DNA of 64,000 bases, taken from NCBI GenBank assembly GCA_016187225.1, contig JACPKC010000007.1, positions 7,654-71,653 of the forward strand, in the 5' to 3' direction. This stretch comes from Candidatus Berkelbacteria bacterium. Its GTDB lineage: Bacteria; Patescibacteriota; UBA1384; JACPKC01. Each line of letters opens with the position of its first letter. Within the stretch, counting starts at the first letter, position 1. The notes beneath the pieces are model-generated. The model searched no databases. It was not told the DNA's origin and saw only the letters and a program-made list of their open reading frames with translations. Made by a program: the position numbers and the translations under genes. Below, one piece after another: positions 15,048-64,000 of this stretch.

Positions 15048-15053
15048 ATATTT

Positions 15054-15841: not shown

Positions 15842-15932
15842 AATATCCAAAGTTTGATAGTATAGAGTTATGAGGTTATTTGTCCTTTGCTCACAAACTA
15901 ATGATAGCAAACTTTGTGGATTTTTACCAGTA

Positions 15933-16243: not shown

Positions 16244-16262
16244 TTTCGTATCTAAAAACAAT

Positions 16263-17834: not shown

Positions 17835-17869
17835 CAGTGCGTTGCCTTCAGCCACTCGGCCACGTCTCC
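17780..17869 (-). tRNA. tRNA-Ser (anticodon GCT), type II with a long variable arm, CCA encoded
   Basis: Manual fold: acceptor GGAGACG/CGTCTCC, D-arm GCC-GAGTGGCTGAA-GGC, anticodon arm ACGCA-CTGCTAA-TGCGT, variable arm of about 17 nt, T-arm GGAGG-TTCGAAT-CCTCC, discriminator G, then CCA. Confidence 0.85.
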
Positions 17870-42609: not shown

Positions 42610-43529
42610 AACAATGTCTCCTGTTTGGTTGCGCTCTGGCTTTTGGGTAAACGAGTAATTAACGATCTAAAACCCAGTTCGGCAAACATTTTTTTCGCCC
42701 GGTCTTCAGCGTAATGTTTCACGCGACAAGCCGATAGATCAAGTTCAATCGGCACATCGATTCGAATTGTGGCAAGTTTTTTAGAGATAAAAGCGCTATC
42801 GGCAAACTTGCACAGCTTCTCGCGAAGTTTTGCCGACACTTGAGGTATTTCAACTGATTCAAGGTCGCACTGCAAAGACGCATAGAGTTTTTCGATCGAA
42901 CCAAAAGCGTGAATAAGCTGTTTGGCAGTTTTTTCACCCACTCCGGGCACACCCGGGATATTGTCAGACGCATCGCCCCGAAGCGCTTTGTAGTCTACAA
43001 CCGATTCAGGCCCAAAGCCATAATGTTCACGCACTTTCCCGGAATCAATAAGTTCGGCTACTCTGGCGCCACGACTCACGTTGAACACCTTGATCTTTCG
43101 ACTAACAAGTTGATAGGCGTCGTGGTCGCCGGTGACGATGAGCGTCTCGACTTGTCGATTTTCTGCTTGCCGAGCAAGCGTGCCAATCACGTCATCGGCT
43201 TCATATCCAGGCACGCTGAAACCGGGCAGATCAAAGGCCGCCACGACCTCGCGCACGATTGGAAATTGAGTCTTAAGCGCCTCGGGCGCTTCGGGGCGAT
43301 GCGCTTTATAGGCGGCAAAATCTTCGTGGCGAAAAGTTGGCCCGGGCTCATCAAAGGCAACTGCCAAGTAGAAGGGATTGAGAGTTTCGATCACATGCAG
43401 GAGGGTTGAGGCAAATCCATAGACGGCATTCAACGGTTGACCGCGGTGTGTGAGCGGCGGAATTGCATGAAAGCTCCGATGAACCAACGCGTGCGCGTCA
43501 ATCAAAACAAGCTGACGCTTATCTTGGCT
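42606..43529 (-). CDS. 5'-3' exonuclease (FEN-like N-terminal domain of Pol I) as a separate ORF
   Basis: MSQDKRQLVLIDAHALVHRSFHA..., acidic-cluster and HhH motifs. The start is taken at Met74 of the tracked ORF to avoid overlap with valS. Confidence 0.8.
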   Translation of the reverse strand, partial: SQDKRQLVLIDAHALVHRSFHAIPPLTHRGQPLNAVYGFASTLLHVIETLNPFYLAVAFDEPGPTFRHEDFAAYKAHRPEAPEALKTQFPIVREVVAAFDLPGFSVPGYEADDVIGTLARQAENRQVETLIVTGDHDAYQLVSRKIKVFNVSRGARVAELIDSGKVREHYGFGPESVVDYKALRGDASDNIPGVPGVGEKTAKQLIHAFGSIEKLYASLQCDLESVEIPQVSAKLREKLCKFADSAFISKKLATIRIDVPIELDLSACRVKHYAEDRAKKMFAELGFRSLITRLPKSQSATKQETLF

Positions 43530-45738
43530 CATAAATCTCTGGCCAGGATGCAATCGCAAGCAAATCTGAATCACGCTGGTGCGCAGGCAATCTCTGCCAA
43601 ATCGTTTCGGTGATAAAGGGCATAAACGGATGGAGAAGTTTAAGGGAAGTCGCGAGAACGGCGTAAAGAATTTGAGCGGTTGAGTTTCGAGTTGACTCAT
43701 CATCAAGTTGTGCCTTGCTCGCCTCAAGATACACATCGGCAAACTCATGCCAAATGAAATGGTAGATTCGCTCGGCGGCTAAGTGGAGCTGGAAAGTTTC
43801 CATGTCTTGAGTGATTTGATCGACGGCTTGGTTGAGCGCCGCTAGGATGACCCGGTCGGCCTCGGTTTTGGGACGAATGGCATTCTTCTGGCGGCTACTG
43901 TTAACGGCTAGTTGTCCACCATCCGAACTCATCAAAACAAACCGAGCGATGTTCCAAACTTTGTTGGCGAAGTGTTTGTAGGCTTTTACTTTCTCGAGAT
44001 CAAACTTGACGTCGCTACCTGGCGCCACACCGACGATTAGGCTCATTCGAAGCGCGTCTGTGCCGTACTCGTCAATCACTTCAAGCGGGTCAATGCCGTT
44101 GTCAAGTGATTTGCTAAATTTCCGCCCGTCCTTAGCGCGTACGACCCCATGGATGAGAACCGTCCGGAATGGAATCTCACCCAGGAGATAGCCGGACATC
44201 ATAATCATTCTCGACACCCACAAAGTCAGAATTTCATAACCGGGGTTAATCACGCTCGTCGGGTGAAATGTTTTGATATCTTCAGCAGTAGCCGGCCACC
44301 CGAGTGTTGAAAATGTCCAAAGCGCTGAACTAAACCAGGTATCGAGTGTGTCCGGGTCCTGTTCCCAACCCTCGCCGTCAGGCACCTCGACTCCGACGTA
44401 GAGTTCGTCGCCTCGATACCAGACCGGGATACGGTGGCCATAGAGAATTTGACGGCTAACGCACCAATCGCGAAGGTTATCAACCCAGTGAGCATAGATC
44501 TTGCGAAAATGCTCCGGAACAATTTCGATCTCGCCGCTCTGAACAACAGTTTGCATAATCTCTTGTAAGGTTGCCTCACTCCCGCTTTTGAGACCCTGCA
44601 GTTTTGAGTTTGCAAGATGGAACGGCTTGTCAACATCGACGAACCACTGAAGTTTCGGCAAAGGTTCAATTACCCCGCCGGTTCTTTCAGATTTGGCAAG
44701 GCTATGAAGAATCGATGTTTCTTTCTCAATTAGGCCTTCGGCTCGAAGTTTGGCCACTATAAGCTCTCGCGCCTCGATAATTTTCCGACCATTAAATTCA
44801 GGCGAGACGTTCTCGATTTTGGCGGACTCGTTAATCACAGCCTTGAGTGACAAATGATGACGCTCGGCCATCTCCCAGTCGATCATCGAGTGAGCCGGGG
44901 TAACGCCGACGGCGCCAGTGCCAAATTCAGGATCGACGGCTTGATCGGCAATAATCTTGATCTCAAGAGGCAAACCCACAAATCGCACTTTGTGGGTTTG
45001 CCCGACATATTCTTTGTACCGCGCATCGTCAGGATGGACGGCAACGGCAACGTCGCCCAACTTTGTTTCCGGCCGAGTTGTGGCAATGGGAATCGGAAAC
45101 TCTTTTGCATACCGAAAAATGTAAAAAGTGGTCGAGACTTCTTCATAGACAATCTCGTCGTCGGAAAGAGTCGTTTGCCCCTTCGGATCCCAATTAACAA
45201 CGCGGTTGCCGCGATAGATCAGTCCATCGTCATACATCCGCTTGAAAGCAGTCCGAACGGCCCGCTCTCGCTCCTCATCAAGCGTAAAAGCCAAACGCGA
45301 CCAATCGACCGAATCGCCCAGTCGCTTCATCTGTCCGAGAATTTGGCTCTGATTTTCAAGCGCGAATGCCTGAACTCGCTCAAAAAACTCTTCCCGAGAA
45401 AAATCATGCCGCGTTTTCTTTTCTTTTTTATAGAGGTCTTTCTCGTATCGAGCCGTGGTGGCGATCGCGGCGTGATCGGTGCCAGGCGCCCAAAGAGTGC
45501 GATCGCCGCGCAAGCGATGATAACGAACTAACGCATCTTGAAGGCTATGTTCAAAAGCATGACCAATATGGAGCGTGCCAGTCACGTTCGGCGGTGGCAG
45601 AGCAATTGAAAACGTCTTGCCCGTTCGGGATGCTTGCGGCGCAAAAACGCCCCACTCTTCCCAGAGTTTATAGATCTCGCGTTCGTGATTCTCCGCAGTG
45701 TAACGCGGAGGCAGGTGTTCTGTATCGTTCATTGCCAT
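43519..45738 (-). CDS. valS: Valyl-tRNA synthetase (short form lacking the C-terminal coiled-coil)
   Basis: PPPNVTGTLHIGHA (the ValRS-specific HIGH region) and KFSKS (the KMSKS motif). 739 aa. Confidence 0.85.
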   Translation of the reverse strand: MAMNDTEHLPPRYTAENHEREIYKLWEEWGVFAPQASRTGKTFSIALPPPNVTGTLHIGHAFEHSLQDALVRYHRLRGDRTLWAPGTDHAAIATTARYEKDLYKKEKKTRHDFSREEFFERVQAFALENQSQILGQMKRLGDSVDWSRLAFTLDEERERAVRTAFKRMYDDGLIYRGNRVVNWDPKGQTTLSDDEIVYEEVSTTFYIFRYAKEFPIPIATTRPETKLGDVAVAVHPDDARYKEYVGQTHKVRFVGLPLEIKIIADQAVDPEFGTGAVGVTPAHSMIDWEMAERHHLSLKAVINESAKIENVSPEFNGRKIIEARELIVAKLRAEGLIEKETSILHSLAKSERTGGVIEPLPKLQWFVDVDKPFHLANSKLQGLKSGSEATLQEIMQTVVQSGEIEIVPEHFRKIYAHWVDNLRDWCVSRQILYGHRIPVWYRGDELYVGVEVPDGEGWEQDPDTLDTWFSSALWTFSTLGWPATAEDIKTFHPTSVINPGYEILTLWVSRMIMMSGYLLGEIPFRTVLIHGVVRAKDGRKFSKSLDNGIDPLEVIDEYGTDALRMSLIVGVAPGSDVKFDLEKVKAYKHFANKVWNIARFVLMSSDGGQLAVNSSRQKNAIRPKTEADRVILAALNQAVDQITQDMETFQLHLAAERIYHFIWHEFADVYLEASKAQLDDESTRNSTAQILYAVLATSLKLLHPFMPFITETIWQRLPAHQRDSDLLAIASWPEIYEPR

Positions 45739-48626: not shown

Positions 48627-49973
48627 ATGTTTAGGTTATTGATTGATCTGCGCTCAATTTGGAGAAACTTGTCCAAAAGCTTTGTCAGAACTATCCAGGC
48701 TTTTGGGTTATTTTTGCTTATGTCCGGCATTTTCTTAAGCCAAATAGCTTTACCGACCCAATTAGTTCAGGCCGAAACTGCTATCAGCGCCGGCAGTATC
48801 GAAGAGGCTCAACGCCTTGCGACACCTCAAGGGTCTGTAGAATTTTCGAAAACGGTCGATGAAAACAAAAAAACGGTTAAAATTACAGTTAATTTTCGAA
48901 AACCCCAAGCGGGCGACGACATTTCAAAAACGCTTGATGTGACATATAACAATATCGTTGTTGCCGCTTATCATTTTTCAAGTTACAAACTCCTCCTGCA
49001 GGAAAAAAGTGGTAATAATCCTCAATTTCTGCGAGAAGGCGGGCTGGGCGAAGGTCAAATAAATGATCAGACAGCAAATGAAAGAAGTATCTCCAGTATT
49101 CATGATCTTAAATTGCCTTCATCTGGTTCGGAGACATATCGCTATAAGGTGAGCGCTACCTATGTGACTACGTCCAAGATAACTCAAGCTGCGCTTAATC
49201 AGATTACTGACCCATTCATCAGAACCGCCATCAACACGCTTCTGGGTAAAATTCCAGAAAAAATTTTCGGGGAATCGAGTGTTTCTGAAGTCACGCTCTA
49301 TTCAGATGGAACAACGAGCTTGAATGACGCAGAAGGCGACACAAAACCAGTTTTGACTGGCACTGCCAGCTTCGAAAATAACAAAAATCGATACGCCGTC
49401 ACGCTTAATTGGACAGTCGACAAACAACCAGATGACTCACCTCCCTACACTCTTTATCGACGCGTTAAAGAATCGACAGACACTGATTTCAGGAATTGGG
49501 CGTCAGTTTCTTCCCCAAGCGAAACCACCGAAACAGATACCGTTAAAGTCAATCCCGACACTTCTAAAACTGTCGAGTATTCAGTCATGGCTAACTATAC
49601 AGATTCAAGTATTCAATCGAGTCAAAAAACCAGTAATAGCGTCTCTTTTGAACTTAGCGCCGATAAAGACGGCAAACCGGTCGATAAGAACGGCAAGTCG
49701 ATAAAAGGACGGATTCCTGGGGCCAAGGGCGAAACGCCAGACATTACCAAACTCGGCAACCAAGCAAATACCACTGGCGAAAAATCGAGCGGTGTCGGTG
49801 GCGACTGCGATAAGGTGATTGAAAAGATTCAATTTGAAGGTATCAGCGGGCAATTTGCGGAATTTCTTGCTAAACCAATGGCGCAGTTTGCATGTTTACT
49901 TGCCGATCAAGTTTATCAAATGATGCTTAAAATGCCTCTCAAGATTGACGCCTGGATACGCACCACAACATGA
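48627..49973 (+). CDS. Secreted/N-anchored hypothetical surface protein (448 aa)
   Basis: Good RBS (GGAGGGG) and an N-terminal anchor helix. A Thr/Ser-rich ectodomain precedes a C-terminal amphipathic segment. The stop overlaps the next start (ATGA). Confidence 0.55.
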   Translation: MFRLLIDLRSIWRNLSKSFVRTIQAFGLFLLMSGIFLSQIALPTQLVQAETAISAGSIEEAQRLATPQGSVEFSKTVDENKKTVKITVNFRKPQAGDDISKTLDVTYNNIVVAAYHFSSYKLLLQEKSGNNPQFLREGGLGEGQINDQTANERSISSIHDLKLPSSGSETYRYKVSATYVTTSKITQAALNQITDPFIRTAINTLLGKIPEKIFGESSVSEVTLYSDGTTSLNDAEGDTKPVLTGTASFENNKNRYAVTLNWTVDKQPDDSPPYTLYRRVKESTDTDFRNWASVSSPSETTETDTVKVNPDTSKTVEYSVMANYTDSSIQSSQKTSNSVSFELSADKDGKPVDKNGKSIKGRIPGAKGETPDITKLGNQANTTGEKSSGVGGDCDKVIEKIQFEGISGQFAEFLAKPMAQFACLLADQVYQMMLKMPLKIDAWIRTTT

Positions 49974-52216
49974 AAAAATTGATCCTCCTCATTTTGGCAA
50001 TCACCGTCCTGACTATTTTAGAACCAAGTCCTGTCTATGCGCTTAATAGTCTTCAAGATCTTATCCGAAAAGAAGATGGCGGCTTGCGTCAGCTCTGGGA
50101 ATTTTCTCGGTCTTTGATCAATTATCTGATGGTGGCGTTCTTAATGATGGTTGCCTTCGCCAACACGCTCCGCATCAACATCGATACCTATGGCGTTAAA
50201 AAGGTTCTGCCTAATCTGATTATCGCCTTTTTGCTGGCTAATTTTAGTTTGTTTTTAGCTCAAATCGTGCTCGATCTCGCTGATTCCTTAACTTGTTCGT
50301 CATATATGATCGCTAGCAAAGAAGCTTGTGGCACGCAAAGCATGAGCCCAGCCGCTTCAGTGATGGTTGATTTTGCCAGAGGAATGGGCGGGGGCTCAAA
50401 AACAGCGGCTGGGATCATTCTTGGCGTTGGTGGGGTAGGAGGACTCGCGGCAGGCGGTCTGGCCGGGGCCTTAATTAGTTTGATTCCGGGAGTGAATTTT
50501 GCCGCCGGCGCCGCCGCTTTGATAGGCGTGGCTCTCGCTTGCGTAATCATATTCTTACTCGCCCTCGTTCCAACTATTTTGATGCTAGTTCTCTGGGCAA
50601 TGTTTATTATCCGTTTTTACTTTCTTCAATTTTTAATTGCCGCCGCGCCCGCCGCCTTTATCCTAATGGCTTTCCCATTCGGAAAAAATATTTTTAATAA
50701 GTGGCTTAATCAATTTCTAACCTGGGCATTTATGAAGCCGATCGCGTTTCTCCTGATGGCGCTCGGGAGTATTATCATCCAGAATCCGCTCGGCGATGCA
50801 ATGGGCTGGGTGGTGAGTTTTTTTGTGGCGGGCGGAGCGATCATCGCCGCAGTGACCGTGCCCTGGAAACTTGGATCAGCGGTCAATAGCATGATAAGCG
50901 GTTTATTGCGTCGGGCTGGCGCCTTTGGCTGGAATAGTACTCGTTTAGGCTTAGCCGGCGTAGGAAGTAAGCTAAAAGATCGCAAAGATTGGGCGGGTAG
51001 GCTTGGTCGAGGTATGAGTGCGACCGCGGGTGTAATGTCGGCTCCAATAGCAATCAAAGAGGTGCTTGACAAAAATCGCCACGATGCCGAACTCGAAGCC
51101 CGAGCCGAAGGCGCGAGCATGATTGGCAACAAAACTTTGCGGCGGCAAGTTGATGACACGCGCATTGCCGAAAAAGCTAAAGAAATTGAAGATAAATCTG
51201 CGCCCGAGCTGGGCGAAATGCTTGGCGAAGCCGCTAAAAGACACGATAAACATCTGGTCCAAGCAATTCTGCAAAAACTCTACAAAGATGGCAATGCAGA
51301 ATTTACTCTCTATGACATGGTTCAGAATAAGATGCTCGATGAAGAAGGCGCCCTGACCGATCTTGCCAAAGAGATTGGTTTGAGCACAGAAGAAATTACG
51401 GATCTTAAAAAGAAGGGCCCAACCGGCAAAGGTTTGAGCAAGCTCACGATGAGCATGCTTGGCGCTCAATTTGAGGATGTTGAGGTAACAGAATATAAGT
51501 TGGACAAGGATGGCAAGTCAACACAAGAAGAAGTTACAAAGACAAAGATTAAGGACAGCGGTGATTTTGTGGCTCGAATGCGTGAACGCCTTGAAGGGAT
51601 TGCGCTTGGCCAAAACCGCACGCATGAATTTGGAACGATTGAACGTGATCCCAAAAAACCCGGCGATCAATTTCTTAGAAGCGATGCCGAGATTGCTAAA
51701 ATAGGCGCAACTATCGGCAAAGATGACCCTCAAGTCATGCTCGCTAAGGCCGAGGGCGACGCGTGGTTGAAACATCGCGGCGAGGAAAAAGGTCTGCAGG
51801 ATACTGTCCTCCAGCGGATCGAGGACGGCAGTATCAACCTTGGCACTTTTGAGCATATCGATCGATTATCTGGCAAGGTGCGCGGTTTGATTAATAGTGA
51901 TCCCAAAGTAGCGGCCGGGGTTCAGAGAGATTTGACTAAAAAATCACAAGAGATGTTGGCGAAATACAATTCTGCTATGAAGACTGGAGACTTTGGAAAA
52001 GCAAAACAACATTATCTGGCTTATGCGACCGCGGAAGTCGCCAAATTAGGCCTGAAATCAGACTACTCGCGCGAAGAAGTGAACGTGGCCCGAAAAAAAT
52101 TTATCGAGAGATCAGATAAAAGATTTGGTTCTTTACTTAAAGAGACGCCTCAATCTCAAGAACCTCCTATACCACTCGGGGGACCCGCAGATCCCAATAA
52201 TATGCCTAACCCATGA
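49970..52216 (+). CDS. Polytopic membrane protein with a Gly-rich loop region and a long charged C-terminal domain; VirB6/TrbL-like (tentative)
   Basis: Signal peptide, at least 6 TM helices with GxxxG-rich segments, and a 400-aa hydrophilic tail. It sits in an operon that ends in PrgI/VirB4-like genes. The family assignment is inferred from topology and context only. Confidence 0.4.
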   Translation: MKKLILLILAITVLTILEPSPVYALNSLQDLIRKEDGGLRQLWEFSRSLINYLMVAFLMMVAFANTLRINIDTYGVKKVLPNLIIAFLLANFSLFLAQIVLDLADSLTCSSYMIASKEACGTQSMSPAASVMVDFARGMGGGSKTAAGIILGVGGVGGLAAGGLAGALISLIPGVNFAAGAAALIGVALACVIIFLLALVPTILMLVLWAMFIIRFYFLQFLIAAAPAAFILMAFPFGKNIFNKWLNQFLTWAFMKPIAFLLMALGSIIIQNPLGDAMGWVVSFFVAGGAIIAAVTVPWKLGSAVNSMISGLLRRAGAFGWNSTRLGLAGVGSKLKDRKDWAGRLGRGMSATAGVMSAPIAIKEVLDKNRHDAELEARAEGASMIGNKTLRRQVDDTRIAEKAKEIEDKSAPELGEMLGEAAKRHDKHLVQAILQKLYKDGNAEFTLYDMVQNKMLDEEGALTDLAKEIGLSTEEITDLKKKGPTGKGLSKLTMSMLGAQFEDVEVTEYKLDKDGKSTQEEVTKTKIKDSGDFVARMRERLEGIALGQNRTHEFGTIERDPKKPGDQFLRSDAEIAKIGATIGKDDPQVMLAKAEGDAWLKHRGEEKGLQDTVLQRIEDGSINLGTFEHIDRLSGKVRGLINSDPKVAAGVQRDLTKKSQEMLAKYNSAMKTGDFGKAKQHYLAYATAEVAKLGLKSDYSREEVNVARKKFIERSDKRFGSLLKETPQSQEPPIPLGGPADPNNMPNP

Positions 52217-53470: not shown

Positions 53471-54982
53471 ATGAGGTTTTTTGTTCTGGTGATTTTGGTT
53501 GCTTTTTTTTCTTTTTTGACGGCGGGCGCGGGCTTTGCCCAGGATCCGATGATCCTCTACCCAAACGCCGGGGCGCGTTTTCAGGTCGATCCTGAAAAGC
53601 CCCTAAAGATGTACTTCATGGGCACCGCGCCGGCTGGCGCCGAGTGGGTACGGGTGAAATGGGACGGGCAAAACTTGCCCGGGCTCGTCGACGTGAAGCC
53701 CGATGGAACCTGGCGAGGTTTCGTCTCGCTCGGCTCGCTTGAAAGGCAAAACGGCGCGTATCTTTCGCGCGACAAGGAATTTGTCGCGCAAGCGCTCGAT
53801 GAAAGTCGAACGCGCCAGATCGGCGATCAACGAACCGTCACGGTTGCGGTTGTGCCGGCGCCGGCGCGCATCGAGGTTGATGACCTCGAACGAGAGATGC
53901 GGATGCGCGCCGAGCGCCAACAAGTACCGGCGTGGATCTGGTGGGGTTTGGGCGCCGTGATGATTGTAATTCTCTGGTACCGCTTTTGGCCGCGGTGCCT
54001 CGTTTACGAGGATCCGACACCGCGGTACGCGGCCGGCCACGAGATTAAACTCAACCGGCCGAGCCATAAGGGGCTGTGTTGGGGAGGTTTCGCGGTTGAT
54101 GAGCGAACTCCATTACCGCCTGGCCTCTCCTTTGTGGATGGCCAACTCGGCAACGCCCCGCCCCGAACCTCGGCGTCCGGCATCCTGGCCGGAACGCCAG
54201 GAGCGCCAGCTCCGCCTGCACCAGGAGCGCCAGCAATGGCGGCCGGCACCTACGACGTGCGCATCATCGGCGGGCTTTTTGCCACCACCGGCCCCTGGAG
54301 CTATCTCGGATGGTGCCGAACAACCGTGACTATCACGGTTGAGGCTCAAACGCGGCGCGTCGTGAAATACAACGACGACATCGCCGTGGTTTGGGAGGCC
54401 GGCAAATGGGCAAGTGTCAAGCCCAAGACCGAGCCCAAGGACATGGAATGGCAGTTCGCCATTGTGACCGTTGTGCCACGGGCGCCCTGGCTCGCCGTTA
54501 ATCCAACGACGGGCGAATTGAGCGGCAGGCCACCCGCCCCACCGGTTCCACCCGTGGCAGGAGCGGCGCCCCCGCCAGACACCTGGCAAGTGGTAGTCTG
54601 GGCCACGAACGTGCGGACTCCGATCGGAGTCGTGCCGATCACGGTCACGATCCACGCCCAAGCGCCGGAGGCCCAGACGCGCCAACCGAGCCTCACCTAC
54701 GAAGTGGTGAGAATGGCTTGTCGGCCTGGCCAACTGGTCTCGCCGAACGCGCCGCGACTCGACCCGCCCGGCACGCTGGCAAATGGATACACCATTCTGC
54801 CAGACCTGCCAGGCGGCATGGTCTGCCGGCCAAGTGATGGGATCATTGCCGGCACACCAGGGGCGGAGCGAGACGGCCAGACCTACACGATCCAGGCGTG
54901 GAACGGCCCGGCCTTCGTCGCCCAGGCCGCCGTTTGGATCGAGGTCAAGGCGCCTGGAGCGCCAGCGGGCGGTGGCAAATGA
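53471..54982 (+). CDS. Secreted protein with a TM anchor and three putative-Ig (He_PIG/dystroglycan-cadherin-like) repeats; GC-rich
   Basis: Signal peptide MRFFVLVILVAFFSFLTAGAGFA. The repeats LPPGLSFVDGQL...GTYDVRIIGG, NPTTGELSGRPPA... and YTILPDLPGGMVCRPSDGIIAGTP...QTYTIQAWNG match the L-P-x-G-L-x(n)-G-x-[LI]-x-G-T-P...G-T-Y pattern of putative Ig domains. Confidence 0.6.
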   Translation: MRFFVLVILVAFFSFLTAGAGFAQDPMILYPNAGARFQVDPEKPLKMYFMGTAPAGAEWVRVKWDGQNLPGLVDVKPDGTWRGFVSLGSLERQNGAYLSRDKEFVAQALDESRTRQIGDQRTVTVAVVPAPARIEVDDLEREMRMRAERQQVPAWIWWGLGAVMIVILWYRFWPRCLVYEDPTPRYAAGHEIKLNRPSHKGLCWGGFAVDERTPLPPGLSFVDGQLGNAPPRTSASGILAGTPGAPAPPAPGAPAMAAGTYDVRIIGGLFATTGPWSYLGWCRTTVTITVEAQTRRVVKYNDDIAVVWEAGKWASVKPKTEPKDMEWQFAIVTVVPRAPWLAVNPTTGELSGRPPAPPVPPVAGAAPPPDTWQVVVWATNVRTPIGVVPITVTIHAQAPEAQTRQPSLTYEVVRMACRPGQLVSPNAPRLDPPGTLANGYTILPDLPGGMVCRPSDGIIAGTPGAERDGQTYTIQAWNGPAFVAQAAVWIEVKAPGAPAGGGK

Positions 54983-55129
54983 GGTAATCGGTCTCCCGGC
55001 GGCGCCGGCGATGGGCCTTAAATACGACGAGTAATGCCCTGGGGTTTGATCCCCAGGGCATTTTTTATCTCAAAGAACTTTCTCACTTACTCGAAAAAAA
55101 TACTTTTTCAACGGTCTCCTCATAGAGAC

Positions 55130-55159
55130 TTGACAAAACAGCCTGACTTGTGATTTAAT
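55130..55159 (+). promoter_or_regulatory. Sigma70-like promoter (TTGACA, 18 bp spacer, TGaTTTAAT extended -10) with a ~200-nt leader
   Basis: -35 TTGACA at 55130-55135, a TG at 55151-55152 and TTTAAT at 55154-55159. The gene start is at 55359. Confidence 0.4.
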
Positions 55160-55358
55160 CTCACGTTTTAACAATTCGGAATCGATGACGACGTAGCCAT
55201 TGTTGGTGAAACGTGAATAGTGAAGCGTTTGATGCTTAATCGCTGACTCTTAACGACTCGCGCTTTACCACCGGATGGGTGCGTCGTCGTCGACAAGAAA
55301 TCCCGGCCGGGTTCGGTCGGCGGCGCGCTCCCAAAAAACCAGAAAGGAGGTGGCTCGC

Positions 55359-56111
55359 ATGTTGCGAACCACCGCATTGATCATCACTATTTTTTTCTTT
55401 TTCTCCTCTGCCTTTCCCGTCTGGGCGGAGACCGAGGTCGAGGCTCTGCAGAGCCTCCTCGGAACCGCCACCGCAACCTGGACGAAGGACCAGGGGTGGC
55501 GGGTTACCTTCCCGAAAGGGAAGCAATACCCGGCGGAGGCGGCTCACGCCGTCGAGGCGCTGTTGAATCGGGGAGAGGGACGGGTTGAGAAAGGAAAAAT
55601 CCGCCTCAACCCGAAGGCCGATATCGGCCAGCTCAAGCTGGCGGACGCCCGGCTGGCGTTCGTCCTGCAGGGGGTCGCTCGCGACCTCCGGCAACAAAAC
55701 CTGGAGATGGCGGGGCGGATGGCGGGCGTGGAGACCCGCGCCGACAACCTCGAGGAGTGGCAGAAAAATGTGGCGCCACTCCTCAAGGGAATCGGCCAGC
55801 CGAGCTGGGTGGCGTGGACCGCGCTCGCGGTTGCCATTCTGGCACTGATCGCGGCGCTTTGGAAGCGCCGCTCAACGGTCGAGCCGGCCGAGGAGCAAGA
55901 GGAGCCGGCTCGATCGCCGACTCGGCAACAACCGGCTCCGCCGGCGCGGCCGACTCCGCCGTCCCAGGGGGGACCCAAGCCAACGCTTCCGGCTCGGCCA
56001 GGACCGGCGCCAGCCATCCCCTCCCCAACGCCCGCCGCGCCCCCGGCTCGGCCGGCGCCTCTGCCGGTTCCTAACACGGAGCCGGAGGAGGAAAACGATT
56101 CGGCCGCTTAA
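55359..56111 (+). CDS. Secreted single-pass membrane protein with a Pro-rich cytoplasmic tail (hypothetical), GC-rich
   Basis: MLRTTALIITIFFFFSSAFPVWA signal peptide, a TM helix WVAWTALAVAILALIAALW, and a C-terminal P/A-rich tail. Confidence 0.55.
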   Translation: MLRTTALIITIFFFFSSAFPVWAETEVEALQSLLGTATATWTKDQGWRVTFPKGKQYPAEAAHAVEALLNRGEGRVEKGKIRLNPKADIGQLKLADARLAFVLQGVARDLRQQNLEMAGRMAGVETRADNLEEWQKNVAPLLKGIGQPSWVAWTALAVAILALIAALWKRRSTVEPAEEQEEPARSPTRQQPAPPARPTPPSQGGPKPTLPARPGPAPAIPSPTPAAPPARPAPLPVPNTEPEEENDSAA

Positions 56112-56201: not shown

Positions 56202-56567
56202 ATGGCAGATCACTTCACCACAAATCCACTTGATCCGGCGGCGTTATTTGAAGAGAATATTTTTGTTCTGCTTGGCTTAAACGATCTACCTGAAGAAAAA
56301 AAGGCGGCTCTGCGCGAACAGATGTTAAGTTCAGTTCGCGACCGCGCTTTGGTTCGCATCTACGATCTCTTGCCCAAAGAAGAACAACAAAAATTCAATG
56401 AGGCACTTGAAAAAGAAGACCAAGAAACCATTCAACAACTTTTGAGTCGCAATAAACTTGACCTGTCTAAATTAATGGTCGAGGAAGCAATTCTTTATAA
56501 ATTGCGCCTAACGCAAGCAAGCGAACAACTTGAGGATGCCGCCCATGCTGAAAAATCAGCCACCTAA
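56202..56567 (+). CDS. Small acidic hypothetical protein (first gene of the operon)
   Basis: ATG with a strong SD. 121 aa, helical and acidic. Confidence 0.55.
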   Translation: MADHFTTNPLDPAALFEENIFVLLGLNDLPEEKKAALREQMLSSVRDRALVRIYDLLPKEEQQKFNEALEKEDQETIQQLLSRNKLDLSKLMVEEAILYKLRLTQASEQLEDAAHAEKSAT

Positions 56568-59500
56568 TAGCGTCAACTCACCGGATTCAGACGAAGAAGG
56601 TTCAAACGAATCTCCTGAAAATGATTCGCGCGACTCGGCTGATGAAGTTATCGAAGAAATCTCGCAAGAGCTTAATAAACGTGAAAAGGAAATTAGTGAT
56701 CTTGTCAAAGAATTTTGTCGATTAGATCGCGAACGCCGGCAAGCGCGTTTTGGCGGCGGCGACCAAGCGGTCGGCAAGTTGTGGAATCCAAAAGAAATCG
56801 CTCGCCGCTGGGGCAACCTGCGCGATTCACTCCACCGCGTGGGCGCGCGCGTTTTTAATGAGAAATCAGGCACATTCGCTTTTGACAAAAACAAGTATGA
56901 GAAACGAGTTTTAGCCGCCCTTGGAGAATCAGCGGCTGGCTTTATAGGCGCTGGCGCAATTTTATTCTCCGGTTTTGGAAGTTATGTGGCGCCCACTCTG
57001 TTTGGGCACTTCTTAAAAGAGGGCATCGACGGCCTGGCAAAAAGCACTCAATTTATACTGGGCAAAAAACAGTGGAACGCCGAGATGGTGACTCAAGTTG
57101 CGTTCGACCTAAAAATCAAAAAATTTCTTGAAAGTGGCAAGGAATATGATGAGGGGCAATTTACTCAAGCCAAAGTCGAACTTATCGATATGGATGCCGA
57201 AATTGCCAGCCTTCAAGCCAAACACCATGCCTCGGATAAAAAATGGACCTTTTGGCGCAAGCTGACTTCAGGCTTTGCAACTGGCGGGGTCGCGTATGGC
57301 GTCACGGGTGTTCCGCTTGGCGTCCACAATTTCGATCCAGGCATTGGTGATGGTTTTACCAATGTAGTCGACAATACGTCGCAACATGGAATAATTGGAT
57401 CCTTGCGCAAATTCCATCGCGTCCTCTGGGGAGCGCAAGGTGGAGAATTTGCGTATGGGCCTGGAGAGTACGAAAGTATAAAAAAAATCGTTGACGATCA
57501 TGGCGGAGTACTCGAAAAAGTAACACACTTTCTAGGAGAGACCCGCCATACACTTGGCCACGGCTTGCCGTCGGGCCTGAAAAACTCGCTTTGGATCGCC
57601 GCTGGATATTTGGGGATTCAAAGTATCTGGGATGGCGCGCAAGGCAGAAATGCGGGCACGCAAACTCGCAAAAGGATTGAAAAAATGATCCACGATGATT
57701 ACGTGTCGTCGGCGCCACCAACTGAAGCGGGGCAAGCGCCAACGCCCGAGCCTCCATTGTCTCTAGGAACGCCAGGCGACGAATCACCGCCTTCGCCTGA
57801 ACCCAAACTACCCTCTGTTCCATCTCCTCAACCACCCGAGGACGCGGTGCAACGAACAAGTAAAGAGGAGAAAAAGATTAAAGACTTTCAATTGGCTTTT
57901 AGTCAACCGTGGATTCTGCGAAAAGATGGTCTACCTCTGGATATTGTAGGCAAAAAAATTAAGGTGATTTTCGGGCGAGGAAATGTCAAGAATGTCAAGA
58001 GTGATATTTCAGCCTTCACGACAGTCCACGACCAAGACACTCGTCGCGGCCGCGTAGTAGTCTATTTGTCTAACGAGATAAAAGAGAAGCTAACAGTCCA
58101 TCTGGATAAACGCGGTGTTAGTGGAGTATTCAATGATGAAACTCGAGTTGCAGACATAGAGCTTTTCGTCGCTGGCATTCGCGAGGATCAAGGGCAGGCG
58201 CAGTTGGAAGTTAGCTTTCAACGTCCCTCAACACCATCAACCCCAACCCAATCGGAACCTCAAGTTTCTATGCCAGCGCCAATCCAGGAACAGGAAACGG
58301 AGATAAGGGAAGGGATTGAGGGGTTGGAGTGGCGAGAGAGGCTGACTTTTGAACAATTTAAGCAAATTCTTGACAACGCGACGGCGCTTTATCGGCACGA
58401 AATTGAAAACGGAAAACCGATTTTTGAGGGCGTAGAAAAGATTGACCAATTGCAACCGGTTGCAGAAATTACCCGCGACGACGCGTTGATTGTTTTCCCT
58501 AAAGATGTGCAAGTCTTCACTCTTGGCGACCTGCACGGCGATACACGCGTCCTGCATTCTTTTCTGAAAAAAACAGACCTTGTCGCAAAAATGCAACGCG
58601 GGGAAAAGGTGGCGCTTCTCGTTCTCGGCGACATGCTGGATCGCGGCGCTCAAAGTTCAGAACTCTTGGCGACCTTGCTCTCGCTCAAGCTTGCATTCCC
58701 AAAACAAGTAGTTCTCCTGCGCGGCGATCACGAGGATGTTGCAATAAATTGTGATTTTGTACAAAATGCTCGGAATTCCTACCACACAAAGACATTTGGT
58801 GCGCATGAGATACTAGGTAACACCGAGACTGAGTGGGAAAAAAAGTTTGGTGCAAAGAATACAGAGATAATTAAAAACACTCACACGCTTCTCTACGGAG
58901 GCCTCCCCTATGCCGCGGTGCTACCAAACGGATTTGTGGCAACCCATGCCGGTGTGCCTTATGAACTGAATAGATTAGAGGCATGGACGACACCCAACGA
59001 AAAACGGCAGACACAATTCATGTGGGGCGATTATACTGATAGAGAATTACTATCGGGTCTTGGTGATGCTGATAACGCTTCAGTATTGACCCGAGAAAAT
59101 CCCGGCCGCGTCTACATGTTTGGCAATCAATTAATCCGGCATTTGAAAGAAAAATTCGGCATTCAGGGTCTGGTCCGCGGCCACGAGCATGACCGACAAC
59201 CATTTCGGAATCAAGATAGCACTGTCTTTACCCTCGTCTCTTCAGGAGAGGTGGTGAGCGACACTAATAGACTCCGCTATGGCTTATTGCAAAGCGATGG
59301 TACGTTCTCCGCATACCCCTTGGAGTTTAAGCCCGAATACCCCAAGGGCGTGTTCCTTGCCGCGACTCAATCTCGGGAGCAAGGTCAGTCAAAACTTATT
59401 GATCGCTACTACGAGCTTGTCAGCACTTTGAAGAATGACTATCTCAATAAAATTGTAACGGTTGAGGTGCGCCGATCAAGGCTTGACGGGTATCTTAATT

Positions 59501-60027
59501 ACCGAATTCCTCAAATTCAAGACTCGCTAAACGATGAAAATATTGTTCTCGAGATGCCTCAAAAAGAACGCAATCGAATGCGCGCGGAGCTTGACCAGAA
59601 AAACAAAAGCGAAGCCCAACTTAAAATTTCTGAAATAAAATTTGTTCTCGGTAAAGATTCCAAGCCAAAGATTAAGATTGAACTCCAAATCCCCGAACAT
59701 GAGCCCGAACCAAGTCCTGAACAACAAAAACCTTTGCTTTCAAATTTCTCTGCTCAAGAGAATGAGATTCTCGATCAGTTGGTCGACCGAGCCAGCGATC
59801 CAGACTCGTACATATTAGTTTTAAGCGAGGCAGAGCTTGAACTTTGCAGAAAACTCGTTCTTCAAATCCCTTGGCAAGTAATCCGCAAGGGCAAGCGAAG
59901 AACTTCCAAAGAGAATGAGGCTTGCGACAAGCTTCAGGTAGCTCTTGAGTCGCCGGAGGGATGTATCCAAAACTCTCAAGAATTTGCCGAGAATATTACT
60001 TGTATGAGGTTGTTCATTGAGGATTAG
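56530..60027 (+). CDS. Giant membrane-associated protein with a C-terminal PPP-family (calcineurin-like) Ser/Thr phosphatase / metallophosphoesterase domain
   Basis: Motifs in order: GDLHGD (GDxHG), GDMLDRG (GDxxDRG), RGDHE (a GNHE variant with N to D), HAG, and RGHEH. Two hydrophobic helices lie in the N-terminal third, with acidic low-complexity regions. 1165 aa. Confidence 0.7.
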   Translation: MRMPPMLKNQPPNSVNSPDSDEEGSNESPENDSRDSADEVIEEISQELNKREKEISDLVKEFCRLDRERRQARFGGGDQAVGKLWNPKEIARRWGNLRDSLHRVGARVFNEKSGTFAFDKNKYEKRVLAALGESAAGFIGAGAILFSGFGSYVAPTLFGHFLKEGIDGLAKSTQFILGKKQWNAEMVTQVAFDLKIKKFLESGKEYDEGQFTQAKVELIDMDAEIASLQAKHHASDKKWTFWRKLTSGFATGGVAYGVTGVPLGVHNFDPGIGDGFTNVVDNTSQHGIIGSLRKFHRVLWGAQGGEFAYGPGEYESIKKIVDDHGGVLEKVTHFLGETRHTLGHGLPSGLKNSLWIAAGYLGIQSIWDGAQGRNAGTQTRKRIEKMIHDDYVSSAPPTEAGQAPTPEPPLSLGTPGDESPPSPEPKLPSVPSPQPPEDAVQRTSKEEKKIKDFQLAFSQPWILRKDGLPLDIVGKKIKVIFGRGNVKNVKSDISAFTTVHDQDTRRGRVVVYLSNEIKEKLTVHLDKRGVSGVFNDETRVADIELFVAGIREDQGQAQLEVSFQRPSTPSTPTQSEPQVSMPAPIQEQETEIREGIEGLEWRERLTFEQFKQILDNATALYRHEIENGKPIFEGVEKIDQLQPVAEITRDDALIVFPKDVQVFTLGDLHGDTRVLHSFLKKTDLVAKMQRGEKVALLVLGDMLDRGAQSSELLATLLSLKLAFPKQVVLLRGDHEDVAINCDFVQNARNSYHTKTFGAHEILGNTETEWEKKFGAKNTEIIKNTHTLLYGGLPYAAVLPNGFVATHAGVPYELNRLEAWTTPNEKRQTQFMWGDYTDRELLSGLGDADNASVLTRENPGRVYMFGNQLIRHLKEKFGIQGLVRGHEHDRQPFRNQDSTVFTLVSSGEVVSDTNRLRYGLLQSDGTFSAYPLEFKPEYPKGVFLAATQSREQGQSKLIDRYYELVSTLKNDYLNKIVTVEVRRSRLDGYLNYRIPQIQDSLNDENIVLEMPQKERNRMRAELDQKNKSEAQLKISEIKFVLGKDSKPKIKIELQIPEHEPEPSPEQQKPLLSNFSAQENEILDQLVDRASDPDSYILVLSEAELELCRKLVLQIPWQVIRKGKRRTSKENEACDKLQVALESPEGCIQNSQEFAENITCMRLFIED

Positions 60028-60225: not shown

Positions 60226-62844
60226 GTGGAACAGCAGGGGTCGCGCAAAGAGACGCTGGCTGAATTGGTTGGTCTGGAAATCCAGTCGCTCAATCAAGCA
60301 CCAACCAAGCCATCCGCCGTAAAGCGGGTTGGGTTAGAGCAGGGTGAGATTGTTTCGCCTCGCTTGAGCGAGACTCGCAATGACAAGAGCGACAAAATTT
60401 TTCGCAATAATAGAGAAAGCGGTGTGCCTCTTTCCGTTGAACACGCCGAGCGATTGGAGCAGGTTCGAGAACAAATTCAAGACCTGAAAACGATCGCCGA
60501 ATGCGCGCGCCAACTGACCGTCCGCTTAAGCGAACTCGCGGCTCAACAAAAGCCCGACTTGCCAGCCGAGGTCGCAAAAATATGGGCAAATGCCAGCAGT
60601 CAAATCGCCAGGTATTTGAATCAGCCGGTCCAGATCGGCGCTGGCGCAACGCCGCACTCGCTCGAGGAAGCGCAAGAACAGTTTGAACACTGGATCAGCT
60701 TGTTTTGCGAAAATGCCGCTGGTCCCGACGGAACTGGCCTTCAAGATGATCCCGACCGTCTCCGAAGCTTCCAGGGAAAACTCGAAAATATCGAACCGCT
60801 TGCAAGCACACTCGCCAAAAACGGGCGCGCGCTCGTGGCGCAGAAAGAACTTACTTTAGAGTATCTCCAAGCAAGCGCCCAGGAAACTTATGCCAAGGCG
60901 CATAAAAATACCGAGCGACTCAAGGCGATCGATCAAGCGGCGCGGCCTCTTCAGGCGCATTGGCTTGAGGCTCTTCAGCAGGAAAAACGCGAACTCGAAC
61001 AGTTGAAGGCTGATCTCAAAAAAATCAGCGGGGAACACCAGCTTTCAGCAACGCTCTTGGCAAAGACAGATGAAGGCATTCAAATTCTCAACCATCTTTC
61101 CACCGAACCGCTCGAACAAGCGCAGATTTCAATTGCCGAATGGGTGGGCAAATTTCGCGAGGCTGAAGATTTTACCGCTGAAAAAGTCCGCGAGCGGATT
61201 CAAACCGACCTCAAAACTCCATTTCAAAAACTTGCCGGACGCATTGAGGAATTGAGGCGCGCGTATGATCCCGACCGCTTAAAAAAAATTTATGAGGCCG
61301 AGCTAAAAAAAGAGCGCGGGGTAGTGATTGAGGAGGCGCAGAATCTTTTAGGCGCGCTTAAAGCCCGAACGAGCGTGCTCACCAACTTGCGGCGCGAAAA
61401 ACTCGGCTCAAAGCCAGACGTGCGGTTCTTTGGCGAAATTGCCAAACAAGTCAACACCGCGATTACCGCTTTGAGCGAGGCCGAGATGAGCTTGCTCGAA
61501 GCGATCAGCGCGCTCAAAGATGCTCCGCTCGTCTCCAAAAACGCCGCGAGTTTTACCGAAAGCCAGGCGAAGGCTAAAAAATTACTCATCCAAACTCAAA
61601 ATTTTGCCGCTCGCAACAAAATTGAGGAACTTTTGGCCACGAGCTGGAAAACCAGCCTGACGCCGCTCAAGGAAGTTCTTGAAACCGCCCGCAAGCGGGA
61701 GATAAGCGCCAAAGCGCTGGCGGATAAGTACAGCCGACATCCTGGCTTCGATACCGCGCTTGCCGCTGACCTGAAAATTAAAACTCAAGCGTTAACCACT
61801 GCTTGCGCCCGAGCAACGGAATTTATCACCGATCACGAAAAGCAGTCAGGCGGGGCCAAGGAGCTGACTGCCCAGCGCGAGCGGCTTATGCAAACAATTC
61901 AAGCGGCGGCGCAAGCGCTTGAACCCTACACCGATGAGACGCGCCTGATGGCCAAGCTTGAAGCCAACAAAGAGCGAACTGAAGAACGACGAGTTGAAGA
62001 GGAACGGCAGGCGCGCGAAGAAGAGGCAAGGCGACGCTCAACACTCTTGCCGCGTCTCGTTACTCTCACGCATGAGGCAAGCCATCTAGCGAGTCAATTT
62101 CGCCGGGCGCTCGGTTATGCCACCCAACTCGAGCAGTACGACAGCTCGCGCGCGCTTGAGTTATACCAAAAGCTCACTGCGCTCGCTGAAACGAATTTCA
62201 ACTCTCAAGTCAGCGCCCTTCCACCGCTTGGCGAGATCATCTCGCAAGGCAAATTTCTCACGGAGCTAAAAACGCGTTTTGAATCTGCTGAACATTCAAC
62301 GAATGAAATTGAAATCGAGATTAGCCAGATCGAAGTCGCCTTGGGTGAAAACGGCCGCGCGAGCGAGCTTTTCCGCGAATTTAATGATTTGGAAAATAGA
62401 TATCCACTGACCGCCTATCGAACGCGCGGTCAATTAAGTCATCTGCTAACCGTCCGAGTTGATCAGTTTGAGCAAAAACTTTTTCGTAGGCGGACGCCAG
62501 AACTCGACATCTTTCGCGAAGAGGTTGTGTGGTTGCGTGAAGAGATAGAGCGTTTTCAAAACGAACCACCGCAAAAAGCGACAGAGCGAGGCGCCAAATT
62601 AGAGGCGCGCCTGAAAGCGCTTGGCGAACGCTTGGCGTCACTCGAAGAACGAACTGAAAATGAGTTTGTTGAGCGCGAGGCTGTCTCAACTCAAGAAAAC
62701 CGCGCTTTGCGGATGAAGCTTCAGGCGCTTTTGCGCGATCAATCGGACTATCAAAGTTATCCAATCAAAATCGACCAGGAAGCGAATCATCCTCAACCCC
62801 AAGTATCTCAAGACGCGAGTGAGACAATTCGGATTCATCGCTAA
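60226..62844 (+). CDS. Giant coiled-coil hypothetical protein (872 aa), GTG start
   Basis: GTG at 60226 preceded by TAGGAGGGAGA. The sequence is almost entirely heptad-like, with E/K/R/Q/L-rich helices and no TM segment. Confidence 0.6.
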   Translation: MEQQGSRKETLAELVGLEIQSLNQAPTKPSAVKRVGLEQGEIVSPRLSETRNDKSDKIFRNNRESGVPLSVEHAERLEQVREQIQDLKTIAECARQLTVRLSELAAQQKPDLPAEVAKIWANASSQIARYLNQPVQIGAGATPHSLEEAQEQFEHWISLFCENAAGPDGTGLQDDPDRLRSFQGKLENIEPLASTLAKNGRALVAQKELTLEYLQASAQETYAKAHKNTERLKAIDQAARPLQAHWLEALQQEKRELEQLKADLKKISGEHQLSATLLAKTDEGIQILNHLSTEPLEQAQISIAEWVGKFREAEDFTAEKVRERIQTDLKTPFQKLAGRIEELRRAYDPDRLKKIYEAELKKERGVVIEEAQNLLGALKARTSVLTNLRREKLGSKPDVRFFGEIAKQVNTAITALSEAEMSLLEAISALKDAPLVSKNAASFTESQAKAKKLLIQTQNFAARNKIEELLATSWKTSLTPLKEVLETARKREISAKALADKYSRHPGFDTALAADLKIKTQALTTACARATEFITDHEKQSGGAKELTAQRERLMQTIQAAAQALEPYTDETRLMAKLEANKERTEERRVEEERQAREEEARRRSTLLPRLVTLTHEASHLASQFRRALGYATQLEQYDSSRALELYQKLTALAETNFNSQVSALPPLGEIISQGKFLTELKTRFESAEHSTNEIEIEISQIEVALGENGRASELFREFNDLENRYPLTAYRTRGQLSHLLTVRVDQFEQKLFRRRTPELDIFREEVVWLREEIERFQNEPPQKATERGAKLEARLKALGERLASLEERTENEFVEREAVSTQENRALRMKLQALLRDQSDYQSYPIKIDQEANHPQPQVSQDASETIRIHR

Positions 62845-62884
62845 CTGCTCATGTTATACTAGGTAGGAATACCCAGGAGGGCTG

Positions 62885-63364
62885 ATGCGGTATCGCGTTC
62901 CGCAGAATATTGATATGGAGGATCGGATTATTGGGCCGCTGACAATGGCTCAATTTGTCTATCTCATGCTCGGCGGCATGATTATTTATGTTTCCTATCT
63001 GCTTTTCATCCCACCGGTCTTTTTCGCAATCGCTTTTGGAGTCGGCATCTTAACCCTCTCAATGACTTTTCTTAAAATCCAGGACCAGCCTTTCCCAAAA
63101 TTCATCGCGGCGACCCTTTTGTATTTGGTCAAACCCAAACAACGGACTTGGCAAAAAGACCCAACGCTCCAGCACATGAAGGTGATTGAAAAAACCGCAA
63201 CCACGCCTGAACAAAAATCTGTCCCGGGGCAAACCGTGACTAAAATCGAGCTCAATGATCTATCGCAACTTTTAGATACCGGAGGCAGAATAGAGCCGCA
63301 AAAACTTCAAACCCAGCCTGCTCTGGAGGAAAAATCCAAAAAAATCGACACGAGTTGGAAATAA
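62885..63364 (+). CDS. PrgI/VirB3-like small membrane protein of Gram-positive-type type IV secretion systems
   Basis: MRYRVPQNIDMEDRIIGPLTMAQFVYLMLGG followed by two TM helices matches the PrgI-family N-terminal signature. It sits immediately upstream of a VirB4-like ORF, as in prgI-prgJ. Confidence 0.5.
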   Translation: MRYRVPQNIDMEDRIIGPLTMAQFVYLMLGGMIIYVSYLLFIPPVFFAIAFGVGILTLSMTFLKIQDQPFPKFIAATLLYLVKPKQRTWQKDPTLQHMKVIEKTATTPEQKSVPGQTVTKIELNDLSQLLDTGGRIEPQKLQTQPALEEKSKKIDTSWK

Positions 63365-63369
63365 TCATT

Positions 63370-64000
63370 ATGTTCCGCACTCGCGCCAAACGCACCCAAA
63401 AAAGCACCCAAGCCTATTTAGATATCGCCGCGATTAAAGATGGGGTTGTGGTTTTGCAAAATGGCGGCTTGCGCGCCGTGTTGGCGGTGACGTCAGTTAA
63501 CTTCGCCTTAAAATCGCCCGAGGAGCAAGAGGATATCGTCTTGCGCTATCAAGGTTTTTTGAACTCTCTCCACTATCCTTTGCAAATTATGATGCAATCG
63601 CGCAAGTTAGATCTGGCCGACTACCTAACGCGCCTGCGCCAGCGAGGCGAAACAGAAGGCAACGAACAGATCAAAAATCAGATCGCGGCCTACACTGATT
63701 TTATGGAAAAACTTCTCGCGGTCGCCAACATTATGGATAAACGCTTTTATGTGGTGGTCAGTTACGATCCGGAGTCGCTCAAATCCAAGAGCTTTCTCGA
63801 CAAACTTCTCCATCCGTCCAAGCAAATTACAATTAGCATGACGGAGCAGGAATTTCAGCGTTACACAACTCAACTCAATGAACGAGTCAACTTGATTGGT
63901 TCAGGACTCGCTTCAATCGGACTCAAGGCCGCAATGCTCACCACTAAACAACTGATCGAGCTTTACTACTCAACATATAATCCCGAAGAAGCGGTTAAAG
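63370..64000 (+). CDS. VirB4/PrgJ/TraE-like type IV secretion ATPase, N-terminal 210 aa (partial; continues beyond the window end)
   Basis: My own translation from ATG 63370 gives MFRTRAKRTQKSTQAYLDIAAIKDGVVVLQNGGLRAVLAVTSVNFALKSPEEQEDIVLRYQGFLNSLHYPLQIMMQSRKLDLADYL... This is the characteristic N-domain pattern of Gram-positive VirB4 homologues. The frame is open to the last base of the window. Confidence 0.55.
   Translation, partial: MFRTRAKRTQKSTQAYLDIAAIKDGVVVLQNGGLRAVLAVTSVNFALKSPEEQEDIVLRYQGFLNSLHYPLQIMMQSRKLDLADYLTRLRQRGETEGNEQIKNQIAAYTDFMEKLLAVANIMDKRFYVVVSYDPESLKSKSFLDKLLHPSKQITISMTEQEFQRYTTQLNERVNLIGSGLASIGLKAAMLTTKQLIELYYSTYNPEEAVK

Follow-up and report, generated by a model that had tools for sequence, protein, structure and literature searches.

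A chromosomal type IV secretion core with VirB4 in two pieces in Candidatus Berkelbacteria

The 3' end of a 64-kb stretch of Candidatus Berkelbacteria DNA (the window, meaning the whole stretch that was analysed) carries two adjacent open reading frames (ORFs), the second of which is cut by the window edge, and this raises the question of which system they belong to and whether the second ORF is a truncated gene. The original prediction, made from the letters alone, had read the pair as a PrgI(VirB3)-like gene followed by the start of a VirB4-like ATPase gene. The window was found to end inside a chromosomal type IV secretion core, which is very probably the core of a Patescibacteria-type chromosomal type IV secretion system (T4SS) with VirB4 in two pieces, a role in host interaction being most likely. 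The two ORFs are as follows:

62885..63364, + strand: PrgI/VirB3-like small inner-membrane protein, 159 aa, Pfam PF12666.
63370..64000, + strand: TrsD-like gene, first 631 nt of 717 nt, ending at window-equivalent position 64086.

An AGGAGG Shine-Dalgarno motif at 62875-62880 precedes the 159-aa ORF, whose stop codon TAA occupies 63362-63364; the next ATG is at 63370, leaving a gap of 5 nt. Hydropathy analysis according to Kyte-Doolittle revealed two transmembrane (TM) helices with peaks at residues 15-33 and 39-57, followed by a hydrophilic C-terminal tail. Coordinates, sequence and hydropathy agree with the predicted two-TM protein and with an ORF following 5 nt on. The Pfam search for PrgI (PF12666), which had been proposed as a check, gave 34.6 bits at a gathering score of 27 (E = 2.8e-8), with residues 4-88 aligned to profile positions 1-90 of 91, confirming that the first gene is PrgI(VirB3)-like. 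The protein has all the marks of the PrgI family, i.e., a passing profile score, small size with two N-terminal TM helices, and a position beside virB4.

Within the window, the ORF from 63370 stays open to base 64000, which corresponds to 210 codons. Two Logan assemblies, L001 and L002, which come from separate sequencing runs and were found by looking up the exact sequence of the PrgI-like protein, extend beyond the window. They show no mismatch to it over 11,116 bp (L001) and 8,287 bp (L002), nor to each other. The full TrsD-like gene was read at L001 10486-11202, where it stops after 238 aa, 28 codons beyond the window, and the same stop is present in L002. An identical 238-aa protein is recorded in NCBI as HYW32_02440 of Candidatus Berkelbacteria. 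The full-length protein from L001 and L002 was found to lack a P-loop and TM helices, and it matched neither AAA_10 nor the TraG P-loop family. The second ORF is, therefore, not a VirB4 ATPase cut at the window edge, given that it ends at 238 aa and has no Walker motifs. A downstream ORF lacking an ATPase domain was what the original prediction itself had named as speaking against it; its literal claim fails, whereas its gist, namely VirB3/VirB4 genes of a T4SS, survives.

The homology of this ORF to the N-domain of Gram-positive VirB4 proteins was borne out by N-terminal NCBIfam alignments and by structural comparison. The 210-aa fragment matched TrsD/TraD (6.7e-9), Mbov_0397 VirB4 (3.8e-8), CD1110 VirB4 (5.9e-8) and VirB4_CagE (1.2e-4); these weak matches are coherent in that all fall on the N-termini of VirB4-type models. 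For the 238-aa protein, the best NCBIfam match was TrsD/TraD (NF041427; 35.5 bits, E = 8.4e-9), with residues 10-151 aligned to model positions 12-159 of 201, followed by CD1110 (1.3e-8), Mbov_0397 (2.1e-8) and VirB4_CagE (1.6e-4). Precomputed annotation assigns PF26593 (TraC-like) to the exact 238-aa protein, while local Pfam searches with the 210-aa and 238-aa sequences revealed nothing above threshold, only TraC_F_IV at 13-16 bits. From 38 homologues, an AlphaFold2 model of the 238-aa protein was obtained with a pLDDT of 80.7 and a pTM of 0.69. In a Foldseek comparison of this model with the PDB, TrwK/VirB4 chains of the R388 T4SS made up 13 of the 15 top matches, the best being 8rtb_A (E = 2e-3, probability 1.0, 183 columns, TMq 0.41). 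Judged from its sequence and predicted fold, the 63370 ORF is a complete TrsD-like gene encoding a detached N-terminal sub-domain of VirB4. The sole match in a single-sequence PDB search with the 238-aa protein, EPSP synthase at E = 1, was rejected as spurious.

Beyond the window, a separate gene encodes a 678-aa ATPase; it overlaps the TrsD-like gene by 8 nt (ATGGTTAA) and has an SD-like (Shine-Dalgarno-like) AGGGGG 6 nt before its start codon. The Walker motifs that had been expected past the edge are present (Walker A, GAGKS; Walker B, VVVDEAW), only that they reside in this 678-aa protein and not in the 63370 ORF. The protein belongs to the CD1110-family VirB4 (NCBIfam NF045971; Bacillota, CTn2 type), passing the equivalog cut-off of 325 bits with 369.8 bits. 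Its alignment covers model positions 182-734 of 752, the first ~180 positions being missing from the ATPase gene; the full-length CD1110 model is fused, whereas the protein is split here. Pfam analysis revealed P-loop_TraG (2e-26), AAA_10 and DUF87, and a PDB search gave the VirB4 C-domain 4AG5 (6e-43) and TrwK (8e-8; TrwK residues 445-737). The TrsD-like protein and the ATPase divide the VirB4 models between them as follows:

Mbov_0397 VirB4 model: 238-aa protein on positions 99-281, 678-aa protein on positions 284-893.
CD1110 model: 238-aa protein on positions 10-127, 678-aa protein on positions 182-734.
VirB4_CagE model: 238-aa protein on positions 10-184, 678-aa protein on positions 241-729.

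When the two proteins were fused in silico, a single alignment of residues 9-850 to Mbov_0397 positions 100-893 was obtained (295 bits). These profile alignments show that the TrsD-like and ATPase genes are colinear with one full-length VirB4, which they tile between them. In the 678-aa protein, the 4AG5 C-domain corresponds to residues 257-613, implying that the split lies inside the VirB4 N-domain and not between the N- and C-domains. The TrsD-like gene encodes the first N-terminal sub-domain, and the ATPase gene the rest of the N-domain together with the RecA-like ATPase domain.

The split arrangement proved to be conserved. With the 210-aa query, more than 2,600 proteins were found; the 120 listed homologues had lengths of 208-327 aa and PF26593 as the only (precomputed) family, and their named sources were nearly all Berkelbacteria or other Patescibacteria. 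A scan of species-representative genomes revealed at least 581 relatives, from which 80 loci of different Patescibacteria were fetched. Their TrsD-like ORFs were 222-412 aa long (median 229), none of them fused. Where the flanks were long enough to judge, 74 of 75 loci had a PrgI homologue directly upstream of the TrsD-like gene, and 67 of 72 had the ATPase downstream as an ORF of its own, with TrsD–ATPase spacers ranging from -56 to +192 nt and sharing no slippery site. The predicted order, VirB3-like and then VirB4 material, is thus kept at the phylum scale covered by these loci. Taken together, the PrgI score, the number of homologues of the second ORF and the kept order imply that the ORF pair is not a chance juxtaposition.

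If the split virB4 were a frameshifted pseudogene or an assembly error, and a single VirB4-like ORF the true state, the 8-nt overlap of two ORFs in different frames and the colinearity of the joined ORFs with a full-length VirB4 model would be readily understood. Against this stand the junction, identical in both Logan assemblies, and the NCBI record of the same 238-aa protein, the recurrence of separate TrsD-like and ATPase ORFs with varying spacers in different species, the ATPase start codon having an SD-like motif of its own, and the same split on Bacillota plasmids and in pGO1-type systems (PMC12102498). The conserved split and the variable spacers exclude an assembly artefact as well as a conserved programmed frameshift; this explanation is already effectively refuted by conservation, and we regard it as exceedingly improbable. 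A programmed frameshift joining the TrsD-like and ATPase ORFs was also rejected as a candidate, since in most related loci the two genes do not overlap and their spacing varies.

Five loci were exceptional in having no ATPase ORF after the TrsD-like gene (L024, L045, L052, L070 and L080). The same five have longer PrgI homologues, of 220-356 aa, and those that carry a lineage label are Peregrinibacteria or Peribacteria. They may represent the published Gracilibacteria exception, and an alternative code (UGA = Gly) could contribute.

An arrangement of this kind is on record. In their survey of 3,035 Patescibacteria genomes, Quiñonero-Coronel et al. (2025) found VirB4 in 2,417, with 2,425 of 2,474 patescibacterial VirB4 proteins in one clade nested in MPF-FATA (a mating-pair-formation class) and with VirB4, TrsD and PrgI adjoining across the phylum (PMC12102498). 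TrsD ranked first in abundance among the components, with 1,664 copies beside virB4, while PrgI/VirB3 was near virB4 in 880 cases and relaxases occurred in only 103 genomes (PMC12102498). For the present cluster, the best profile matches were to monoderm VirB4 families, and the close homologues are all from Patescibacteria. The apparent MPF-FATA affinity of the cluster agrees with the survey (PMC12102498), and the T4SS of the window very probably derives from monoderm (MPF-FATA) conjugation machinery. The PrgI–TrsD–VirB4 system being already known across the phylum (Quiñonero-Coronel et al. 2025; PMC12102498), the locus is an ordinary T4SS and one more case of the published arrangement, with nothing qualitatively new.

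The closest counterpart is the Patescibacteria-clade T4SS itself (PMC12102498), including that of Southlakia epibionticum (SEML1_0006-0019; PMC10633639), which is likewise a chromosomal cluster in a host from the Candidate Phyla Radiation (CPR) with PrgI/VirB3, a TrsD homologue and VirB4 adjoining, a cell-wall hydrolase downstream, and no relaxase or coupling protein nearby. The window cluster differs in being without a VirB2-like pilin array nearby and in having Berkelbacteria-specific proteins of 872 aa, 348 aa and, as a giant protein, ~1,850 aa. An SLT-type VirB1 directly after virB4, as seen here, is uncommon outside Paceibacteria (PMC12102498).

The TrsC-TrsD-TrsE genes of pGO1/pSK41, an MPF-FATA subclass with a separate TrsD, follow the same three-gene logic, in which, by the order given in the literature, a small VirB3-like membrane protein is followed by a ~200-230 aa homologue of the VirB4 N-terminus and by the VirB4 ATPase. 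pGO1 differs in being a conjugative plasmid with relaxase and coupling protein, and the 238-aa protein is a distant relative of TrsD, not a member of that family.

TrsD-like proteins with 25-30% identity were also found on 132 Bacillota plasmid records, 117 of which are typed 'non-mobilizable'. Two of these loci were inspected, on the Pontibacillus megaplasmid NZ_CP062975 (L083) and in C. difficile BI1 NC_017177 (L084). They resemble the window cluster in the sequence of a small protein, a hypothetical protein of 274-322 aa, a VirB4 of 621-640 aa and a peptidoglycan hydrolase, and differ in that the hydrolase is an M23 endopeptidase instead of an SLT enzyme and the host is Bacillota instead of CPR. 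The small first protein is of the PrgI family in the C. difficile record and unannotated in Pontibacillus, which also has an Mbov_0395 pilin-like gene. The megaplasmid module implies that the split predates or extends beyond CPR, and the plasmid records imply that T4SS modules without a detectable relaxase are not confined to CPR.

In the inner-membrane complex of R388 (PDB 7O41, 8RTB), VirB3 holds the VirB4 N-domain. TrwK, the VirB4 of this TrwM(VirB3)-TrwK(VirB4) complex, is the top Foldseek match of the 238-aa model; R388 differs in that it belongs to the diderm MPF-T systems, has an outer-membrane core complex and makes its VirB4 as a single chain, and sequence identity is only 11-15%. By analogy with R388, PrgI would anchor the soluble TrsD-like piece at the membrane, and the PrgI and TrsD-like pair would dock the ATPase hexamer, which may power the assembly of a translocation channel and perhaps of a pilus. 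The SLT enzyme would open the peptidoglycan locally.

The genes of the cluster stand in the following order:

872-aa helical, coiled-coil-like protein, 60226..62844, + strand, directly upstream of PrgI with a 40-nt gap.
PrgI/VirB3-like protein, 159 aa.
TrsD-like protein, 238 aa.
VirB4 ATPase, 678 aa.
SLT lytic transglycosylase, 397 aa, VirB1-like (3e-23), directly after the ATPase.
348-aa beta-propeller-like protein after the SLT gene, membrane-anchored, with a single TM helix at the N-terminus; its beta-propeller signals are weak.

For the 872-aa protein, no Pfam or NCBIfam family and no homologue in the 80 more distant loci were found, while homologues occupy the same position in three Berkelbacteria loci (L085, 6e-58; L086, 3e-52; L087, 2e-13); as a neighbour of the T4SS core, it is conserved but specific to this lineage. 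These three relatives share the succession of an 872-aa-like protein, PrgI, TrsD-like protein, ATPase, SLT and 348-aa-like protein, after which comes a giant protein of ~1,850-2,000 aa. In the present genome, the T4SS core is followed, a few genes on, by the giant protein at L001 19496-20480, continuing beyond; this protein occurs in all four Berkelbacteria loci (L085 from 13125, L086 from 18577, L087 from 11828) with 1,850-2,003 aa, an N-terminal TM region and no Pfam family, the E values for the portion that was read lying between 1e-40 and 1e-46. Within the T4SS, it may act as a surface or contact protein.

One further candidate component lies upstream in the window:

49970..52216, + strand: 748-aa polytopic membrane protein, ~9 TM helices within its N-terminal 300 residues.

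The gene is part of a co-directional block that runs on the same strand from ~47.5 kb through the T4SS core. Its product gave no Pfam match even at E values up to 10, and only three homologues were found, carrying precomputed PF19590.

Two upstream genes were rejected as T4SS parts. Two genes before PrgI, a 1165-aa protein is encoded (56530-60027) whose residues 665-888 form a calcineurin-like metallophosphatase domain (1.8e-14); it is preceded by the gene of a DUF5663 protein. The metallophosphatase gene is not kept in the three related Berkelbacteria loci, and the DUF5663 gene is kept in only one of them.

To place the cluster in its genomic context, selected ORFs of the 64-kb window and of 9 kb downstream (~73 kb in total) were scanned with Pfam and NCBIfam. 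The window contains genes for TsaD, a class I aminoacyl-tRNA synthetase, PolA (two genes), holA, RecA, FtsK, RNase J and PNPase, and this housekeeping neighbourhood implies that the window is chromosomal. Genes for FemAB, a PEP-utilising enzyme, a Mur ligase and glycosyltransferases were found in addition.

Among the scanned ORFs, neither a relaxase nor a VirD4/TcpA-type coupling protein was detected with these general profiles, dedicated MOB or type IV coupling protein profiles not being part of the scan; the one FtsK-like protein present carries the alpha and gamma domains of FtsK. A conjugative T4SS is recognised by a relaxase and a type IV coupling protein accompanying the cluster, and this combination was not found among the ORFs scanned in the ~73 kb. 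That the cluster is nonetheless the mating-pair-formation module of an integrative and conjugative element (ICE) or plasmid, serving DNA transfer by conjugation as in the canonical MPF-FA/FATA reading, is suggested by the best family matches being conjugal-transfer ATPases (CD1110, Mbov_0397 ICE, TraC), by the same PrgI/TrsD-like/VirB4/peptidoglycan-hydrolase module on Bacillota plasmids and by a serine recombinase at 16077-17834 in the window. That neither a relaxase nor a coupling protein was detected among the scanned ORFs and that housekeeping genes flank the cluster argue otherwise, the recombinase is 45 kb off with RecA, FtsK and PNPase in between, and the module is found in ~80% of Patescibacteria genomes and inherited within classes, as compared to relaxases in 103 of 3,035 genomes (PMC12102498). 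We consider conjugation very unlikely. Host interaction is preferred over it because the scan showed neither a relaxase nor a coupling protein in the vicinity and because epibiotic growth requires a homologous system, the Southlakia T4SS cluster, in which relaxase and coupling proteins are likewise not recognisable (Wang et al. 2023; PMC10633639). By this analogy, the machine most likely serves the interaction with a host bacterium, be it protein export, a pilus or other transfer.

The transport could also be directed inwards, i.e., the system could be a T4SS-derived machine for the uptake of DNA or other host material, comparable to Ced of archaea or ComB of H. pylori. Weak matches of the ATPase to the DNA-import ATPases CedB (7e-12) and CedD (2e-6) point in this direction, as do the lack of a relaxase and coupling protein in the cluster, the inability of Patescibacteria to synthesise nucleotides and the T4SS being essential whereas ComEC is not (PMC10633639, PMC12857230). 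The Ced matches are, however, far weaker than those to conjugative VirB4 and reflect the shared ATPase fold, and no CedA-like or ComB-specific partners were seen. We also know of no measured transport direction for any patescibacterial T4SS, which counts against this explanation, and uptake is regarded as unlikely. Going further, the detached TrsD-like sub-domain may be an innovation, a PrgI-bound adaptor for reversible VirB4 engagement, in a relaxase-less machine that imports host material and whose 872-aa, 348-aa and ~1,850-aa proteins form a new host-contact apparatus; this combination is a speculative proposal to which we attach a rather low probability.

Several points weigh against the interpretation of the locus as a Patescibacteria-type T4SS core acting in host interaction. 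The function of the cluster is inferred throughout, and a relaxase or coupling protein could be encoded elsewhere in the genome, beyond the ~73 kb inspected. The 238-aa protein does not reach the NF041427 cut-off of 200 bits with its 35.5 bits and is a distant homologue outside the curated subfamily, and PF26593, being absent from the local Pfam result, is assigned to it by precomputed annotation only. No VirB2-like pilin (small ORF with at least two TM helices) was found from 45,000 to 9 kb past the window end, where the scan matched only PrgI itself and an antisense ORF inside PrgI; the Saccharibacteria cluster differs in that a VirB2-like pilin is present there. A VirB8-like protein was not identified near the cluster. 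The 748-aa protein is a weak candidate for a VirB6-like channel subunit, its homologue P0124 matching TrbL/VirB6 (PF04610) with 20.5 bits, below the Pfam cut-off of 25.9.

Patescibacterial T4SSs matter because they occur in ~80% of CPR genomes and are essential for epibiotic growth in the one tested species. For the present locus, the annotation is corrected in that the edge ORF encodes a 238-aa TrsD-like protein and not a truncated VirB4. The colinear tiling of TrsD and ATPase suggests a concrete structural role for TrsD, which had been described without an assigned function, and a conserved Berkelbacteria-specific extension of the cluster is recorded.

Elsewhere in the window, the region 13099-17869 contains two tRNA-Arg genes (13099-13174 and 13276-13351) and has a GC content of 0.377 at 14-16 kb, compared to ~0.49 elsewhere. 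The serine recombinase encoded there is a large one of 585 aa (16077-17834, + strand), and the 3' end of its gene overlaps tRNA-Ser(GCT) (17780-17869, - strand). These features suggest a small element integrated at a tRNA gene. An ICE based on this recombinase was rejected, as it is too distant from the T4SS core and housekeeping genes intervene.

A second split protein in the window is DNA polymerase I, which is encoded by two genes overlapping by 4 nt (41386-43748, - strand):

42606-43748, - strand: 5'-3' exonuclease of DNA polymerase I, 380 aa.
41386-42609, - strand: family-A polymerase domain, 407 aa.

At 53471-56111, within the co-directional block but ahead of the T4SS core itself, Pro/Ala-rich proteins are encoded and the GC content jumps to 0.63 (54-56 kb). 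One of these proteins has 503 aa with a signal-like N-terminus and a weak He_PIG Ig domain, and another has 278 aa with two TM helices and a proline-rich tail. Finally, two tandem, overlapping genes for Wzy_C (O-antigen ligase-like) membrane proteins of 445 and 465 aa were found at 4520-7136 (- strand), within a cluster of glycosyltransferase, flippase and Mur-ligase genes.

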